A stretch of DNA of 64,000 nt from Escherichia phage EcWhh-1, in the sequence record MH791409.1. One strand, written 5' to 3'. Shown in pieces: positions 1,566 to 48,948 of this stretch (position 1 is the first letter of the stretch; each line of letters begins with the position of its first letter). Position numbers and translations under genes: made by a program. The notes beneath the pieces are model-generated. The model had not been told where the DNA came from, made no database searches, and worked only from the letters and a program-made list of their open reading frames with translations.

Positions 1566-2414
1566 TTAATCCTTAAGAAGATTTAGGATATCGATATATT
1601 TTTGACGTTCAGCCTTAGCTTTAGCATTCAGACCAGAGAGTCGGAAAATCTCATCATCTTGTTGTTGGATTGTAACATTCAAGCAAGTAAGCAAATTGCT
1701 AAAATACTCAATCTGGGCTTGATGCTTCTCATTGCTGCGCACTGGCACAGGTTCCGGTTTAGGAGCTTGTTCTGAAGGCTCTTCAGTCAGGTCTTTAATT
1801 TGGTACAGTTTAATACGCTGACCCGCTCCAGTTTCGGCATCACCAAAACTAAGAACACCATGCCGTTCTAATTCAGACAGGGCTAAGCGCAGGTGGAACT
1901 TCCAGTTGTCATATTGACAACCACTATAAGTGGAAACAATATACCCACCATGTTCAGGTATTTGACTTTTAATAATATTAAAGACAATCCAATCGCCTGA
2001 ACCATTGGTCTTAAAGGTCATTTGTTTATCAAGACCTTTTGCAAGGCGAGCGCCAAGAGCCAGTAGACGCCGTTGGTTGGCATGAAGGTCTTGAACAACT
2101 TCGTCAAATGACATCGCCGGGATTAAACGACCATAAAGGTCGTAGCCTTTGTTATAATTTTTAAGAATAATTTTGGCATTAGCACGAGACAACATACCTG
2201 TTTTACGAAGAGTTTTCATGACTCGGTCTTCTAACGTAAACGAACCTTTAGTCTTGTCAAAGATTTTAGTGAAGTCATCTTTAACAGTACAAACATTGAA
2301 CTTGTCCCACATCATATATAGAACCCTTTCAACCACTTCATTAGAACTCGGAATAAAACCAAAATTAATAACTTTTTTAACTTCAGAACGAATTTGATTA
2401 ATTGCCTGTGACAT
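1566..2414 (-). CDS. hypothetical protein, 282 aa
   Basis: Long minus-strand ORF in co-oriented operon. Confidence 0.6.
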   Translation of the reverse strand: MSQAINQIRSEVKKVINFGFIPSSNEVVERVLYMMWDKFNVCTVKDDFTKIFDKTKGSFTLEDRVMKTLRKTGMLSRANAKIILKNYNKGYDLYGRLIPAMSFDEVVQDLHANQRRLLALGARLAKGLDKQMTFKTNGSGDWIVFNIIKSQIPEHGGYIVSTYSGCQYDNWKFHLRLALSELERHGVLSFGDAETGAGQRIKLYQIKDLTEEPSEQAPKPEPVPVRSNEKHQAQIEYFSNLLTCLNVTIQQQDDEIFRLSGLNAKAKAERQKYIDILNLLKD

Positions 2415-2477
2415 AATAATTTCCTCAGTAAGTAATTAAGAACCTAGAACCATTATACCATCCTTGGTATAAAGCGT

Positions 2478-3002
2478 TTATGCGAGAACCGTCTTTAAAC
2501 GCTCTTCAAATTTCTGAAGCAGAGCTTGGCGTTCAGCTCGTTGTGATTTGTACTGCTCGATACGACCTGAAGTGAGGGCGTACTGTTCGTTTACTGATTC
2601 CCGCATGAATTCAGGAATCTCTTTACACGCTTTGATTTCGTCAAACTTATCAATAACCGCTTGTTCCTCGGCAATCAGATTATCGAAATAAGCGATATCA
2701 GATTTAACATTTGCCAGGTCGGATTCAGTAGGCATTAAACGTTTGTTACGTTCAGCTTGATAAGCTTGATTGTTTTCACGGCTCCAGTAAAGAATACGTT
2801 TTTTGTTAGTGTTTTTATAGAGCTCTACAATACCAACTGAATCGATGATAGCAATCCAGTTCCAACGGCTTTTGTAAATCTCTCCTCCAGATACGGTAAT
2901 CTCATTACCACAAGCAACGTCGTTAAAGAACTTGCTTTGTTTTTCAGATTTGAAATTACCATTATTAAAATTAATCAGTGAAAAAATATCTTTAGCGTTC
3001 AT
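2478..3002 (-). CDS. hypothetical protein, 174 aa
   Basis: ORF with ATG at 3002, GGAGG SD, early promoter element immediately upstream. Confidence 0.6.
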   Translation of the reverse strand: MNAKDIFSLINFNNGNFKSEKQSKFFNDVACGNEITVSGGEIYKSRWNWIAIIDSVGIVELYKNTNKKRILYWSRENNQAYQAERNKRLMPTESDLANVKSDIAYFDNLIAEEQAVIDKFDEIKACKEIPEFMRESVNEQYALTSGRIEQYKSQRAERQALLQKFEERLKTVLA

Positions 3003-3017
3003 GATAACCTCCAGTAG

Positions 3018-3058
3018 TTGATAGGTCTATAGTATCATTTCTACTGGAGATGTAAACA
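3018..3058 (-). promoter_or_regulatory. early promoter element (TTGATAGGTCTATAGTATCAT family)
   Basis: Conserved motif plus TGTAAACA on plus strand; flanked by inverted repeat CTCCAGTAG/CTACTGGAG. Confidence 0.55.
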
Positions 3059-3059
3059 A

Positions 3060-3401
3060 CTAATAGAAACTTTTTTCACCGGATTGACCACTAAACCAAG
3101 CGGATTGGGTGTTCTCTTTCCGTTGGTGTTTAATACGAATAAGGTATTCATTCCTGATGGCGCAGAGTTCACCTCGGAAGTCGCCTGCCAACTTTACCTG
3201 CTTACGGTCTAGATTTATTAAGGCCTGAGTCTTAGCGGCCAAGGCCAGTCTCTTGTAGTCTCCTTCTTCACAATCGGTTTTATAAACCTTTTCGGCGAAT
3301 TTGTATTTAAATTCATTATCATAGTCCTCGACGGACTGTTTCATGGCATTAGAGTACTTCAACTCTGCTTTTATAAGGTCGTAACTAAATTGTTCGAACA
3401 T
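3060..3401 (-). CDS. hypothetical protein, 113 aa
   Basis: ORF in operon context. Confidence 0.5.
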   Translation of the reverse strand: MFEQFSYDLIKAELKYSNAMKQSVEDYDNEFKYKFAEKVYKTDCEEGDYKRLALAAKTQALINLDRKQVKLAGDFRGELCAIRNEYLIRIKHQRKENTQSAWFSGQSGEKSFY

Positions 3402-3411
3402 AATTTCACCT

Positions 3412-4392
3412 TTATTTCAGAAGTGTAACTTCAGCGATTTCGTTCCAGTCATTTTTATCAGTGGCAATGAAGTCCGCCAGATAAAGAGCTGTACGTAATG
3501 ATACGTTACGAAGACGAGATACATTAGCCTTCATCCATGCTAAAGCTTGATAAGTCTCAGCATCAGTCAGACCTCGATTTTGCATCATATCAGTGGACAG
3601 GATAACGTCTTCAACACGAACCATAATCTCTTCGTTCGAGTGAACTCCGAGGTCTAAGTAAACTGAACGAGATACTAAAGCCTGGAGGTGTGGAGCAAGT
3701 TTAGTTCCACGCTCTAATTCACGGTCAATATCAACGTTGGTGATGAACACGATGGTGCCTTCGTATTCGAATTCTTTATCGATATTTTTATCATCGAGGT
3801 AAGAACTTGAAGTGCTCCAGCACACTTTACGTTTTTCACCAGTATCCAATGCTGCTTTTAACAGGTTCAGGATATCCATATCAGAGAATACATCAACATC
3901 ATCGATAAGAAGAACACTATTAGGGCCGCGGTTATTCCAAAGCTGCTCGTAAAGACCGATTCCACTAATCTTTCCGTTGATTGATTTATATTCGATAGTT
4001 TCATTTTCGTGGGCATTTTGTAATGCTTTATCCAAAGAATACGTTTTACCAATACCTGCGGCACCAGAGATGATAAGGGAACGAATTTTACCATCGATGA
4101 TTCCGTTGGTCATCATGTTCATTACTTTAAAACGTTTGTTGATGCGATGTTTCATTTCTTCAGCGGATTCAGTAATCACTACAGGAGCTTCAGTACCTTC
4201 CATTTCAACGTCACATTTGAACACCCATACACCACGTTCAACACCATCAATCTGTACGAATACCTTGCCATCACCGAGGTGAGCTTCGGATTCATGAATT
4301 TTATTTGGGAACCAGGTTTTACCTGAACTCATGAACGTACCAGAGATTTCATTACCGCGATAGATACCTTTGTTGATTTTGATAGTTAACAT
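3412..4392 (-). CDS. P-loop NTPase (Walker A GAAGIGKT, Walker B LLIDDVD)
   Basis: Walker motifs in translation; table start 4407 is GTG, ATG at 4392 has AAGGAG SD. Confidence 0.65.
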   Translation of the reverse strand: MLTIKINKGIYRGNEISGTFMSSGKTWFPNKIHESEAHLGDGKVFVQIDGVERGVWVFKCDVEMEGTEAPVVITESAEEMKHRINKRFKVMNMMTNGIIDGKIRSLIISGAAGIGKTYSLDKALQNAHENETIEYKSINGKISGIGLYEQLWNNRGPNSVLLIDDVDVFSDMDILNLLKAALDTGEKRKVCWSTSSSYLDDKNIDKEFEYEGTIVFITNVDIDRELERGTKLAPHLQALVSRSVYLDLGVHSNEEIMVRVEDVILSTDMMQNRGLTDAETYQALAWMKANVSRLRNVSLRTALYLADFIATDKNDWNEIAEVTLLK

Positions 4393-43451: not shown

Positions 43452-44116
43452 TGACTTTAACTGAAATGAAAAGCGGGTTAAAATCCCGCTTAGCTGACTA
43501 TTTGGAATTATCTTACACCAGTGACAAGCCTACTGCTGTTGCTGACCAACGACCTATCGGTGGCCCTTCTGCAAACCAAACCCAGAAGGGTGTTTATTTT
43601 CCTACAGTCCAAAGTGCAATAGATGATATTGCATTTAGAACAGAGCTTCCTGTGAACTCTGTTATTATTACCACAGAAAACAGAGCACCTGGATTTATCC
43701 AACAATCTGATAAAATTACATTTACCGGTTCTATTTCTTCAGGCGGCGAACTTGGCGACCCGGTTATTATTAAAGTGTTTGGACTTCCTGTAGAGGTCTT
43801 AGTTGGTGATTCATCTGTATTGGTTGCATCTAAAGTAAATGATGTATTTTTAGACGCCATTGCTAATAGCTATATTTTAGCCGAAACGGCTATTGACGCC
43901 TTAGACCAATCTACCTTGAATATTAAATACAATGACTATCAGAATCATATTTTTTCACCATATAAACAATCGGGTTGTACAATTTCCCATACTATAGTCC
44001 AGCAGCCAAGGGCCGGATATGGTAAGTGGGAATACTTAGGTAACTCTACCCAATCGTTAGCAGGTGGTACAGTTAACGGCACGATTCCTTTATATTACTA
44101 TAAGAGATTATATTAA
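43451..44116 (+). CDS. 11: baseplate wedge / tail pin gp11
   Basis: Synteny and size (221 aa); sequence diverged from T4. Confidence 0.75.
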   Translation: MTLTEMKSGLKSRLADYLELSYTSDKPTAVADQRPIGGPSANQTQKGVYFPTVQSAIDDIAFRTELPVNSVIITTENRAPGFIQQSDKITFTGSISSGGELGDPVIIKVFGLPVEVLVGDSSVLVASKVNDVFLDAIANSYILAETAIDALDQSTLNIKYNDYQNHIFSPYKQSGCTISHTIVQQPRAGYGKWEYLGNSTQSLAGGTVNGTIPLYYYKRLY

Positions 44117-45642
44117 TGTCAACAAACACACTAAAACACATTAGTGATAAATCGGAATTCAAATCATTCGACCCTACTGGGTCGAATTTCCCGCCTGATA
44201 TTACTAATGTTCAAGAAGCATTGGCGGCTATTTCATTAATCGGTGTCACTGGTAATGTTCCTTCAGCCACAGAAACATCCCAAGGTATTATTCGTCTTGC
44301 CACAACACAAGAAGTAATGGATGGGTTGGATGCTTATAGTGCAGTGACCCCTGCAACTTTAAAAGCACGTTTAGATATTCCTACTCAGGCAACAGAAACT
44401 TATATAGGTATTACCCGTTATGCTACTAACGCTGAAGCTATAGCAGGTACAGAGCCCCAGGCTGCAATCGTAGCAACCTCTTTGAAAGCGGTAATGGATT
44501 ATACATTTGAGAACCGTTTATCAACAGAGAACACTACAGGCGTTATCAAGATTTCAACTACACCTGCCGCATTAGCTGGTACCGATGATACCACAGCAAT
44601 GACCCCACTTAAAGTATCGCAAGCAATTGGCGCGGCCACAGCAGCGTTACCGGTTTATTCTACGGCAACGACTACAAATGAAGGTTTAGTTCGTTTAGCG
44701 ACTAATGCTGAAGTTGGCAATGGAAGTCTTTCGGTAGGTATTGCTATTTCTCCAGCCGGATTAGCCACATTAACTTCCACCGAAGCCAGAAGTGGTATTA
44801 TTAAACTCGCAGGTTGGGATATGGTATCTAATGGTACTGACCATACTGCCGCTGTTACTCCGGCATCTTTGCTAGCTCGTACAGGTAATACAGGGCGAAT
44901 TGGCTTGGTGCGTTTAACTACTACAGTTGGACAAGGCGATGGTAATACGGCCCTGGCTTATAATGCTAACGTTATTTCTACTTCAGGTGGTGAAATATGG
45001 GGTACTTTAAACGTTAATGGCGCATTACGTCGTAATGGTGTTGATGTTGTTACCCACGACCAATTATCAGATAGCGTTCCGGTAGGTACTATTTGTATGT
45101 GGGGTGGACATGAAGGTAATATCCCAGGCAAATGGCGAGCTTGTGTAGGTGGGACTTATACTGGTGGTGCATATTTAAATGCTGTTGGCGGACGTTGGGG
45201 ATGGTGGGGTGCTATTCCAGATTTCCGTGGATTATATCCTCGCGGTGCTAACATGGTTGGTGGATATTCTGAAGGTGAAGTTAACCCACATATTGCCGGT
45301 AACCGAGGAGAAGACGGTAAAGGTAAAGCCCGTTTAGGTAACGGTGTAGGTTCGTTCCCACAATCTTCTGTTCAAGCCCAAGCATTACGTTATCATAAAC
45401 ACGCCGGTGGTTTTGGTGAACATGATAACTATGGTGCTTTTGGTAACACTGCTAACTCTGGGTATGTTGGTACTCGTAAAGGACTTGACTGGGATAACCG
45501 TAGTTATTATACTAACGAAGGGTTTGAGACCACTGAACCTTGGAACCGTGATGGCCATACCACACTGAATAGTGAAGGACTTATTGCAAATGAAACACGT
45601 CCTTGGACAATGTCCGTTCTTTTTATTATTAAAGTAGAATAA
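44116..45642 (+). CDS. 12: short tail fiber gp12
   Basis: Synteny, size, Ala/Thr/Gly-rich repetitive fibre region. Confidence 0.8.
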   Translation: MSTNTLKHISDKSEFKSFDPTGSNFPPDITNVQEALAAISLIGVTGNVPSATETSQGIIRLATTQEVMDGLDAYSAVTPATLKARLDIPTQATETYIGITRYATNAEAIAGTEPQAAIVATSLKAVMDYTFENRLSTENTTGVIKISTTPAALAGTDDTTAMTPLKVSQAIGAATAALPVYSTATTTNEGLVRLATNAEVGNGSLSVGIAISPAGLATLTSTEARSGIIKLAGWDMVSNGTDHTAAVTPASLLARTGNTGRIGLVRLTTTVGQGDGNTALAYNANVISTSGGEIWGTLNVNGALRRNGVDVVTHDQLSDSVPVGTICMWGGHEGNIPGKWRACVGGTYTGGAYLNAVGGRWGWWGAIPDFRGLYPRGANMVGGYSEGEVNPHIAGNRGEDGKGKARLGNGVGSFPQSSVQAQALRYHKHAGGFGEHDNYGAFGNTANSGYVGTRKGLDWDNRSYYTNEGFETTEPWNRDGHTTLNSEGLIANETRPWTMSVLFIIKVE

Positions 45643-45651
45643 GGGTAAAAA

Positions 45652-47958
45652 ATGATTAACAAATTGGAACTTAGTGAGTTACCATTTGTTGACGGCGTAC
45701 CTGATGCTCCTCAAAAGCGTATCCAATGGATACGCGAGGGTGATTGTATGTCTGCAGCAAAAACAAAATACGGCAATGAAGGTAATTTGAACGCTGCTGC
45801 TTTAGGAGTTCAGAAAAACGTAGAAGCTCTTGATGCCAACGATTTAAAAACTGCTGATAAAGTTAATGAGCTTATAGAAAACGTTAATAATATCAATGAC
45901 GCTTTAGAAATGTCAACAGATATTTCTATCATTCAACAAATAGAGAAAAACCGTGTTGATATTGTAGACCTTAAAAAAGTCACCGAAGATACAACAGAAA
46001 AATTGGACACCTTAACAACCAATTTTGATTTCTTGCGTGAAGATGTTGGATACCATGACCCTTTACAAGACGGGCCATATTTAACTGTACGTGAAAATAT
46101 TGTTCTTCTTAAAAATGAAATTGGTCACTATGAGGACCAGGATATAAACGGTAATCCTTTACCTCCAGGTGAAACTAGTGAAGCCACTGGTATAAAACGC
46201 CGCATCATGGATAATACCACTGAATTGGTGGACCATCGTCTTCGTATTGATACCCTTGAAAGAAACTATGAAGATTCTGATGTTGGGCAATTAGGTATTA
46301 AACTAAATGAAATTCGTGCCGAATTAGGACCACATTCTGATACGGTAGGTAAACAACCCGCTTACACCCGAATTTCAGTATTAGAAACGGCTGCAGTTAA
46401 TTTTAATACGGCTATTGACGAAATTAAGGATAATATTGATTTCTCTGGTATGCCTATAAAGGACCGAGTAACTACTTTAGAAAGCAAAACCTTTACCTTA
46501 GAAAATTCAGTTAACGTTGATTTAAAACCTAGAGTAACTTCTATAGAAACTCAAATCGGTTCCGAGTCTGCACCAGCATCTATTAATGGACGTTTAAGTG
46601 GGCTTCGTACCGATGTAAATGATTTAAAAACCGTTGTTGGTAATAGTTCTAGTGAAGGGCTTCGTTTCCAGGTTTCCGATATTAATCGACGCCTTGGTAG
46701 TGAAGTGTCTCCTGCTGCTGGCACAATTAATAAGCGTTTGAATGATGTTATTATTCAAGCAAACCAATCTACCTCGTCCATCCAGGATATTCAGGTAGAA
46801 ATTGGTAACAACCAATCTGGTATTAAGGGTACTTTACTTAAACTCACCGATAAGGTTGACGGGACGAACCCTAACGGAGCTACCGTAGAAGAACGTGGTC
46901 TTATTAATGCGGTTACTTCTTTAGAAACCCAGATTCAAGGTAAATTAGGTGATGCACCTTCTGATGGTAAACTCTATGCACGTCGAAATGCGGCATGGGC
47001 TGAAGTTGTTAATAATTCCACAGAAATAGAAACCGTTAAAGCCGATTTAGTTGTTACCGACGGTAAAGTGACCGCTTTAACTTCCAGAGTAGATGGTAAT
47101 GATACCTCAATTTCTTCTCTTGATACTCGTACCGGTGCATTAAACACTTCGGTTGGCGAGATTAAAGCTGATATAGTTTCTATAAAGGCTAAAGATGATG
47201 AACAGGATGGTCGTTTAACAGCACTTGAATCTAGTGATGTGACCATTAACGGTAAAATTGCTGCTCTTGAAACTAAGACAGATACCACTGATGATGATGT
47301 CACAGCACTAGCTTTAGACGTTTCTTCTTTAGAGAACCAATTGACTCCTATAAAAGCCGATATTACCAAAAACAAAGGTGATATTGTTGCCTTAACTGGT
47401 CGAGTGGCTTCTACTGAAGGCGAAATTAATGCAATTAAAGTTGATACAGCCAAAATTGCTCCTTTAACAACTAGAGTTACTACGGCAGAAGGTAAAATCA
47501 CTACTTTAGAAACAGGGCTTGCCTCTGTTAAAGTCGAATCCGATAAGGTAGCAGGTATTAATACCCGCCTTAGCACTGCAGAAGGTGACATCGGAACACT
47601 TAAAACAGGGTTGGCTGAAGTTAAGGGTGAATCCGATAAAGTAGCAGCTATAGATACCCGTTTGGGTGTTGTTGAAGTTGAATCAGGTAAAGTAGCAGGA
47701 ATCGATGCTCGTTTGGGTGATGTTGAAGGCGAAGTTAGTACTCTTGAAACAGGTTTGGCTGCAGTTAAAGTTGAATCTGATAAAGTTGCTGACTTAGGAA
47801 CCCGTTTAACCGCTGCCGAAGGTAAAATTACAGCCTTAGAAACAGAATTATCTAAACGTCCACCGGTGGCTCCTGCCGCAGACGGACTTCCGTATGTTCT
47901 GGTTGATAACGCATGGGTATTATTGTCTGATTTTGTGACTTTAAACTCAGCACCATAA
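45652..47958 (+). CDS. wac: fibritin (whisker antigen control), extended 768-aa form
   Basis: N-terminus like T4 Wac (LPFVDG...IQWI), coiled coil, C-terminal foldon-like motif (YVLVDNAWVLLSDF). Confidence 0.85.
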   Translation: MINKLELSELPFVDGVPDAPQKRIQWIREGDCMSAAKTKYGNEGNLNAAALGVQKNVEALDANDLKTADKVNELIENVNNINDALEMSTDISIIQQIEKNRVDIVDLKKVTEDTTEKLDTLTTNFDFLREDVGYHDPLQDGPYLTVRENIVLLKNEIGHYEDQDINGNPLPPGETSEATGIKRRIMDNTTELVDHRLRIDTLERNYEDSDVGQLGIKLNEIRAELGPHSDTVGKQPAYTRISVLETAAVNFNTAIDEIKDNIDFSGMPIKDRVTTLESKTFTLENSVNVDLKPRVTSIETQIGSESAPASINGRLSGLRTDVNDLKTVVGNSSSEGLRFQVSDINRRLGSEVSPAAGTINKRLNDVIIQANQSTSSIQDIQVEIGNNQSGIKGTLLKLTDKVDGTNPNGATVEERGLINAVTSLETQIQGKLGDAPSDGKLYARRNAAWAEVVNNSTEIETVKADLVVTDGKVTALTSRVDGNDTSISSLDTRTGALNTSVGEIKADIVSIKAKDDEQDGRLTALESSDVTINGKIAALETKTDTTDDDVTALALDVSSLENQLTPIKADITKNKGDIVALTGRVASTEGEINAIKVDTAKIAPLTTRVTTAEGKITTLETGLASVKVESDKVAGINTRLSTAEGDIGTLKTGLAEVKGESDKVAAIDTRLGVVEVESGKVAGIDARLGDVEGEVSTLETGLAAVKVESDKVADLGTRLTAAEGKITALETELSKRPPVAPAADGLPYVLVDNAWVLLSDFVTLNSAP
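47440..47880 (+). repeat. imperfect tandem repeats inside wac (ESDKVAG...RL...AEG...TLETGLA units)
   Basis: Four to five ~22-codon units visible in DNA and protein. Confidence 0.6.
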
Positions 47959-47961
47959 TAA

Positions 47962-47981
47962 AAGGGCTTCGGCCCTTTTTT
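47962..47981 (+). terminator. rho-independent terminator
   Basis: GGGCttcgGCCC hairpin followed by TTTTTT after wac. Confidence 0.65.
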
Positions 47982-47983
47982 GC

Positions 47984-47991
47984 TATAAATA
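47984..47991 (+). promoter_or_regulatory. late promoter TATAAATA box (gene 13)
   Basis: Exact TATAAATA ~22 nt upstream of gene 13. Confidence 0.6.
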
Positions 47992-48012
47992 CGGTTATTA
48001 GAGGAATAAAAC

Positions 48013-48948
48013 ATGGCAAGTGAATCATATAACCCTAAGCAACTCAAGGACGCTATTCTGCGTCGCCTGGGTGCGCCGATTACAAATATTGAAGTAACTA
48101 CTGACCAAGTATATGATTGCATCCAGCGGGCTCTAGAGCTCTACGGCGAATACCATTATAACGGGTATAACAAAGGTTATCAGGCTTTTTATATTGGCCA
48201 TGACGATGAAGAAAAATTCCGTAATGGCGTATTCGACCTTAAAGGACGTAATATATTTGCAGTAACACAAATTTTGAGAACTAACGTTGGCTCTTTAACA
48301 TCTATGGACGGGCAAGCAACTTATCCATGGTTTACAGATTTTGTACTAGGTTTGGCAGGTATTAATGGTGGTCTTGGGTCTTCATGTAATAGTTTTGGAC
48401 CTAATGCCTTCGGCGCCGACCTTGGCTATTTTACACAATTAATGCAATATCGTTCTATGATGCAGGACCTTTTGGTTCCGCTGCCTGATTATTGGTATAA
48501 TGATGCCACTGAACAATTGAAGGTAATGGGCAACTTTGTTAAAGGCGACTTTATTGTAATTGAAGTTTATACCCGTTCATTTAATGGCGTTGATTCCATG
48601 GTCGGGAATACAGCAGGATATGGATATGCTTCTGGTGGCTGTGACGAAAATGAATGGAGTCCTGGGGCTATTTGGGACAATCCTGCACGCCGAATTTCAG
48701 GAATGAGAGCTGGTGAGGACCTTGGACTACAAGATGGTGCGTATAATAACCGTTGGGTCAAAGATTACGCTACGGCATTAGTTAAAGAGGTCAATGGTAA
48801 TATTTTAGCCAAACACCAAGGTATGCAATTAGCAGGCGGAACCACTGTAGATGGCATTCGATTGATTGAAGAAGCTCGTTTAGAAAAAGAACGTCTTCGC
48901 GAAGAATTAGATTTGCTCGACCCACCAACACCTATTTTAATTGGATAA
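48013..48948 (+). CDS. 13: neck protein gp13
   Basis: Synteny and size (311 aa). Confidence 0.8.

Follow-up and report, generated by a model that had tools for sequence, protein, structure and literature searches.

The long fibritin gene of Escherichia phage EcWhh-1, located in the 64,000-nucleotide stretch of DNA analysed here (the window), is, we are highly confident, a Dhakavirus (JS98-like, T4-type) wac gene encoding the published 'JS98-type' fibritin. The double-foldon long form is real, is ordinary in its lineage and was known before: fibritin of this type was described in 2007 and again in 2013 and is annotated in GenBank, so that no new architecture is involved. As judged from sequence comparison and structure prediction, the order of parts in the EcWhh-1 protein is a T4-like N-terminus that would bind the neck, a shaft, an internal foldon (F1), a helical coiled-coil spacer and a terminal foldon (F2), and on the same grounds F1 is a maintained foldon under purifying selection and not a relic. 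The features are listed below with their positions in the window.

45652..47958, + strand: wac gene, JS98-type fibritin (neck whisker or collar fibre), 768 aa plus stop.
45652..45801, + strand: N-terminal domain, aa 1–50, putative neck attachment by T4 homology (aligned with the T4 fibritin N-terminus).
45802..46938, + strand: T4-like segmented coiled-coil shaft, aa 51–429 (phmmer match to 2bsg, AlphaFold2 helices).
46939..47019, + strand: internal foldon F1, aa 430–456, GKLGDAPSDGKLYARRNAAWAEVVNNS (Pfam, T4 foldon score, invariant residues, predicted hairpin).
47020..47397, + strand: proximal spacer, aa 457–582, non-repetitive heptad coiled coil (hydrophobic period, autocorrelation, predicted helices).
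47398..47856, + strand: distal spacer, aa 583–735, array of 31-aa (93-nt) repeats with 14-aa and 17-aa sub-units and one 17-aa partial copy (DNA repeats, lag identity).
47857..47955, + strand: terminal foldon F2 and tail, aa 736–768, RPPVAPAADGLPYVLVDNAWVLLSDFVTLNSAP, the foldon itself being aa 736–762 (T4 foldon score, 1avy match, predicted hairpin).

The identity of the gene is established by its product, its relatives and its position. The ORF list and translation give an uninterrupted frame on the + strand (45652–47958), and the 768-aa product matches, residue for residue, the database entry 'fibritin neck whiskers protein [Escherichia phage EcWhh-1]' (P0023). Identity to the wac gene of JS98 (genus Dhakavirus) is 96.7 % at the DNA level, and the two proteins share 95.8 % of their amino acids. 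T4 Wac has 487 aa, which makes the EcWhh-1 protein 281 aa longer, as the earlier note on this DNA had estimated (about 280). Upstream of wac, the ORF at 44116–45642 carries gp12 short-tail-fibre Pfam domains and is itself preceded by an ORF with a gp11 Pfam domain, and the downstream ORF (48013–48948) is the counterpart of the annotated JS98 gp13 neck protein; wac therefore lies between gp12 and gp13, the position of a T4-type fibritin gene and the order found in JS98. More than 80 independent genomes carry the frame unbroken, which rules out a gene fusion or an assembly artefact.

The N-terminal part of the protein resembles T4 fibritin closely. A conserved N-terminal domain of about 50 aa, characteristic of T4-type fibritins, is present: it aligns with that of T4, and across 42 homologues nine of its residues, spanning aa 11–47, are invariant (P11, P17, Q21, R23, I24, W26, T38, G44 and N47). 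Homology to T4 and the literature suggest that its role is attachment to the neck. T4 fibritin residues 4–432 (PDB 2bsg) were aligned by phmmer with aa 5–430 of EcWhh-1 Wac (E 3.9e-73), which bears out the T4-like N-terminus and coiled coil described in the earlier note. The AlphaFold2 model, a monomer with a mean pLDDT of 68 and a pTM of 0.22 that is informative for secondary structure only, predicts shaft helices over aa 46–431 with short loops between them, i.e. the long segmented coiled coil expected of a fibritin.

An internal foldon-like motif at about residues 430–450 had also been claimed, and the motif in question, DAPSDGKLYARRNAAWAEV (aa 434–452, nt 46951–47007), proved to be a foldon by several measures. 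A Pfam Fibritin_C match that begins within the shaft extends over aa 371–454 and covers profile positions 2–92 of 93 (E 2.3e-28), and a 60-aa fragment around F1 passes the same profile unaided (29.2 bits against a cutoff of 21, E 1.1e-6). When F1 was compared with the T4 foldon peptide, the Smith–Waterman z was 9.3 and none of 2000 shuffles scored as high, a likeness well beyond what chance would give. The residues A435, P436, D438, Y442, R444 and W449 are invariant in the 42-sequence fibritin alignment, the dN/dS of F1 (Nei–Gojobori) lies between 0 and 0.09 in comparisons with JS98, VR5, ABTNLsp5 and QL01, and the AlphaFold2 monomer, built on the same alignment, has a predicted β-hairpin at 442–445/448–451. 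It is because of the Pfam match, the z score, the invariant residues, the low dN/dS and the predicted hairpin that we regard F1 as maintained. Of the T4 signature, F1 keeps the N-terminal half (D/E-A-P-x-D-G-x-x-Y-x-R...W), and no long or short form sampled lacks F1, not even those that have lost most of the spacer.

The second foldon-like sequence, reported in the earlier note at the C-terminus, was likewise confirmed. When its motif, ADGLPYVLVDNAWVLLSDF (aa 743–761, nt 47878–47934), was compared with the T4 foldon, the Smith–Waterman z was 11.3, a score that none of 2000 shuffles reached, and in phmmer searches the last 63 residues matched 1avy (E 0.005) and 1aa0 (E 0.011), both of them fragments of fibritin. 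AlphaFold2 predicts a hairpin at 748–751/754–757 with a short helix after it, the arrangement seen in T4. No match was returned by a Pfam search of the F2 fragment. The foldon signature (A-P-x-D-G-x-x-Y-x-R/x...W) is therefore recognized through Pfam in F1 and through the T4 foldon z in F2, a hairpin is predicted for both, and the polypeptide contains two T4-like foldon motifs (aa 430–456 and aa 736–762), as the JS98 type does. F2 retains the Y and the W of the T4 foldon together with its hydrophobic tail, W-V-L-L-S-x-F. As read from the sequence, V739 and L750 stand at the positions of T4 E461 and R471, which make up an inter-subunit salt bridge in that protein. Throughout Dhakavirus and Gaprivervirus F2 is nearly invariant, and its DNA is 96 % identical between EcWhh-1 and CLBP2/dhabil, though the shafts are only 69 % identical; this indicates that the 3' end is either strongly constrained or was recently exchanged. 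F1 and F2 show barely any similarity to each other (z 1.8), and a recent tandem duplication of the foldon is thereby ruled out.

The 279 residues between the foldons (aa 457–735) include no aromatic residue and only two prolines, are predicted by AlphaFold2 to form helices at 456–540, 550–593 and 599–734, and are under purifying selection (dN/dS 0.04–0.25). Over aa 457–600 the hydrophobic period is 3.50 and autocorrelation peaks occur only at heptad multiples (7, 14, 28, 42, 49 and 63). In the distal spacer the hydrophobic period is 3.44, that is 31/9, 31 residues being four heptads plus three; here the lag-31 identity reaches 46 % (z 12.9, aa 601–735), copies of the repeat are found in the DNA at 47518–47805 with spacings of 93/51/93 nt, and the rows of the array are aa 583–613 (degenerate), 614–644, 645–675, 676–692 (the 17-aa partial unit), 693–723 and 724–735. 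The imperfect repeats of about 22 residues that the earlier note described over some 300 residues do not exist: at lag 22 the identity is at background (z -0.8 to -0.1), the proximal part is non-repetitive, and the distal array repeats every 31 aa. The periods, the predicted helices and the range of lengths found among relatives agree with the coiled-coil spacer of variable length that belongs to the JS98 type.

Equally long double-foldon fibritins, whose occurrence among close relatives the earlier note had set against its own reading, are the usual form in Dhakavirus and Gaprivervirus. When the extension alone was used as a tblastn query, the extension/F2 module was found in 86 phage records from these two genera, one of them EU224420 ('JS98-C3 wac'), and in all of them it lies at wac; the arrangement is the published 'JS98 type'. 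A homologue search with the extension alone was swamped by low-complexity word sharing; apart from short-form fibritins it brought up nothing but generic coiled-coil proteins, and it missed JS98. Both foldons are present in every Dhakavirus wac sampled. Among the sampled relatives the shortest fibritin has 514 aa and the longest 827 aa, and it is only in the spacer that they differ in length. Long forms were found in VR5 (768 aa, the same as EcWhh-1), JS98 and NC-G (751 aa), JS10 (799 aa), Esco_phi_B-01 (827 aa), CLBP2 (772 aa), vB_EcoM_005 (737 aa), UP19 (734 aa), and ABTNLsp5, dhabil and ESCO10 (720 aa each), and their length differences all fall in the 31-aa array, at the boundaries of 14-, 17- and 31-aa units. 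In the short forms, of 529 aa in MN04, QL01 and Bp7 and 514 aa in C6, a single stretch has been cleanly deleted, the break running from '...ALTSRV' to 'T(T/A)AE.KI.ALETEL', and in MN04, QL01 and C6 the proximal spacer is wholly lost. The MN04 record is assigned to the species Dhakavirus JS98, yet its fibritin is short; since long and short forms occur within one genus, whisker length may matter little. In Gaprivervirus, TH44 (748 aa) and TH22 (541 aa) follow the same plan with a diverged F1 and an amplified repeat of their own of about 24 aa. The two foldons lie about 50–365 aa apart in the relatives and about 50–336 aa apart in metagenomic and other homologues. Single-foldon fibritins of 455–459 aa (Pectobacterium phage PM2, P0043 and others) stop exactly at the position of F1.

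How the two-foldon arrangement arose bears on the proposal that a module had been appended to an ancestral fibritin. The modular build that this implied, a body with its foldon, an extension and a second foldon, is borne out; 'appended' names just one of two directions, and gain and loss of the extension/F2 module appear, from the sequences, to be equally possible. The direction is obscured because recombination between the foldons would erase the signal. It is quite possible, if something short of probable, that the long JS98 type is ancestral and that T4-type and other single-foldon fibritins arose by deletion between the foldons, nothing having been appended. The last coil and foldon of T4 fit the context of F2 (score 77, z 13.3) better than that of F1 (66, z 8.6), and the clean spacer deletions in MN04, QL01 and C6 illustrate such loss within Dhakavirus. 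However, the terminal foldon of T4-type fibritins aligns with F1 in the 42-sequence alignment, the 455–459-aa proteins end at just that point, and spacers of about 50–110 residues (foldon start to start) look like stages of growth; inter-foldon recombination would also have wiped out directional signal on which this reading could draw.

We consider it improbable that the extension, instead of stemming from a duplication inside wac, was acquired from a trimeric fibre other than fibritin, for example the P22-type gp26 needle or another coiled-coil adhesin. The idea is prompted by a phmmer match of spacer residues 501–663 to the coiled coil of the gp26 tail needle (4lin, E 1.2e-6), in which a motif R-V/L-T-x-A-E-G-x-I-x-x-L is common to the spacer and the gp26 core (PDB 4lin, 2poh and 3c9i), and by weak matches to assorted coiled-coil proteins. 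Likeness between coiled coils is often convergent, though, and that to gp26, which extends no further than the coiled coil, may be so too, gp26 differing from EcWhh-1 Wac in gene, virion position and terminal domains. Moreover, within the phage collection the module occurs only at wac, it ends in a foldon, the hallmark of fibritin, and the spacer may also weakly resemble the fibritin shaft, its own or that of T4, z being 4.6–8.1 against shuffles that destroy the heptad pattern. Least credible of all, and very improbable, is the view taken in the earlier note that F1 is a decaying, functionless relic of a former C-terminus, for although the hydrophobic T4 tail WVLLSTFL is missing from F1 and replaced by WAEVVNNS, and one distant comparison (CLBP2/dhabil) gave a dN/dS of 0.75 over 27 codons, the six invariant motif residues, the dN/dS of 0–0.09 in the four other comparisons, the unaided Pfam score with the predicted hairpin, and retention in all sampled long and short forms argue against it.

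With F1 taken as a maintained foldon, a working scheme for the whisker can be proposed. By extension from T4, F2 would nucleate and register the distal coil, and F1 would be a further knot, inside the chain, that holds the proximal T4-like shaft in register; a fibre of about 770 residues provided with both need not zip up from a single end. F2, as the C-terminal tip, would by analogy with T4 touch the long tail fibre near its knee, and the reach of the whisker would be set by the spacer, which at about 1.5 Å per residue could add some 400 Å. Unequal recombination may alter the number of 31-residue units and so generate the long forms of 720–827 aa, and larger deletions in the spacer may generate the short forms (514–529 aa) of the same genus. 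The separate roles of F1 and F2, the binding of the tail fibre by F2 and the extra length of the whisker are thus what we infer by analogy. A stronger version, in which the 31-residue array is a fast-evolving length ruler that tunes whisker reach, and with it the fibre-retraction switch, by unequal recombination, and in which F1 is an obligatory second folding nucleus, seems to us doubtful. If it were true, changes in the array would set how far along the long tail fibre the whisker extends, and so the phage's environmental 'fibre-retraction' switch, and F1 would be what allows whiskers so long and so variable to fold.

The value of these observations as discovery is small, the architecture being published and the norm in Dhakavirus and Gaprivervirus, but they are of some practical interest. 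In protein engineering the foldon is a popular trimerization tag and is nearly always placed at the C-terminus; a natural internal foldon followed by a coiled coil suggests that the motif tolerates continuation of the chain. The coil of 31-residue units, variable in copy number, also offers a natural series of whisker lengths with which the relationship between fibritin length and tail-fibre retraction could be tested.

The JS98 type is one of the fibritin C-terminal variants listed by Letarova et al. (2013, Ecol Evol, PMC3797505), who report for it two T4-like foldon motifs and, citing Latypov et al. (2007) on JS98-C3, a spacer with a coiled-coil pattern whose length varies. According to the same authors, T4 and JS98 fibritins trimerize using these foldons only, as reported for the whole JS98 protein; in T4 the N-terminus attaches to the neck and the C-terminal domain starts trimerization, and the protein also aids tail-fibre attachment and keeps the long tail fibres retracted through a contact near the knee (PMC3797505). 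The evolutionary direction between fibritin forms is left open in that paper, which does not treat the repeat anatomy, boundaries or adaptive role of the spacer, and no paper came up in a literature search that combined 'Dhakavirus' with 'fibritin'.

Beyond the fibritins, a counterpart of F1 was found in a solved protein, chain a of PDB 8rk3 ('DUF2793 domain-containing protein', 382 aa), whose residues 118–144 (DAPSDGKAYARESGAWTEL) match F1 with E 4.8e-4; the motif is internal, as in F1, the likeness is one of sequence, and the protein, unlike EcWhh-1 Wac, is no fibritin. T4 fibritin (PDB 2bsg, 3j2o, 1aa0 and 1avy; foldon 1rfo) is homologous to the EcWhh-1 protein in its N-terminus and segmented coiled coil. 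The equivalents of T4 E461, Y469, R471 and W476 are kept in F1, and Y469, W476 and the VLLS-F tail in F2. Where T4 has a single C-terminal foldon, EcWhh-1 has two foldons plus a 279-aa spacer, and the 25 or so residues of coil that precede the T4 foldon are missing before F1. The closest counterpart is the JS98-type fibritin of JS98, JS98-C3 and JS10, which shares with that of EcWhh-1 the gene, its position and the order of domains (N-terminal domain, shaft, foldon, spacer, foldon). EcWhh-1 and JS98 do not differ in the sequences of F1 and F2, and at the DNA level the proximal spacers of the two phages are 90.7 % identical as against 98.4 % for the shaft. Only the repeat count distinguishes the proteins, 17-aa and 31-aa units accounting for the difference between 768 aa in EcWhh-1 and 751 aa in JS98 or 799 aa in JS10.

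On sequence comparison, the wac gene of the window is a mosaic, its regions differing markedly in their divergence from the same relatives. The 3′ end that encodes the terminal foldon (window 47857-47958) shares 96% DNA identity with the corresponding part of the wac loci of phages CLBP2 and dhabil, whereas identity to these loci in the shaft-coding region is only 69%; the corresponding dS values are 0.17 for the 3′ end and 1.45 for the shaft. When the comparison was made with JS98, the opposite pattern was observed, so that the shaft is the more conserved region (98.4% identity) and the proximal spacer, the heptad coil that follows the internal foldon (nt 47020-47451), is the more divergent (90.7%).

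The length of the fibritin also varies among closely related phages. Phage MN04 encodes a short fibritin of 529 aa (1201-2790 of its locus, L010), although it is assigned to Dhakavirus JS98, the same species as JS98 itself, and a long/short polymorphism is therefore present within a species. The 720-aa double-foldon fibritin of phage vB_EcoM_ESCO10 (801-2963 of its locus, L014) is labelled ‘phospholipase’ in the GenBank record, which appears to be a mis-annotation.

One further open reading frame lies across the gene on the opposite strand:

46974-48122, minus strand, antisense ORF of 382 aa overlapping the section of wac that is rich in repeats, together with the intergenic stretch ahead of gene 13

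Its predicted product is of low complexity, with S, T, A, P and V abundant. In most relatives 312-419 codons of this antisense frame are open, but no more than 192-234 consecutive codons are open in CLBP2, dhabil and Esco_phi_B-01. The ORF probably exists as a side effect of codon usage in the coiled-coil sequence.

Foldon-like motifs were also seen in other homologues. The 593-aa fibritin of Yersinia phage MHG19 (P0051) carries the motif DAPNDGMMYFRQNGAW at the position of the internal foldon, and the approximately 135 aa beyond it do not have the appearance of a coiled coil. This protein is a further example of an internal foldon, here ahead of a different distal domain. In the metagenomic protein P0068 (1016 aa), a fibritin N-terminus and shaft precede a non-coiled C-terminal region of approximately 550 aa, in which at least four foldon-like motifs are dispersed (DAPSDGEYYARRDGVW, EAPNDDNFYLRSKFKW, EAPSDGKMYGRKDGVW and DAPSDGAKYTRMNGKW). 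The 607-aa Wac of Escherichia phage EcS1 (Kagamiyamavirus; 2001-3824 of its locus, L017) ends in six tandem foldon-like motifs (aa ~433-607), and matches to Pfam Fibritin_C fall in six distinct stretches within its final 175 residues. These motifs follow one another without intervening coiled coil, and compared with the JS98-type fibritin, in which a coiled-coil spacer separates two foldons, the foldon of EcS1 Wac has been elaborated in another way.
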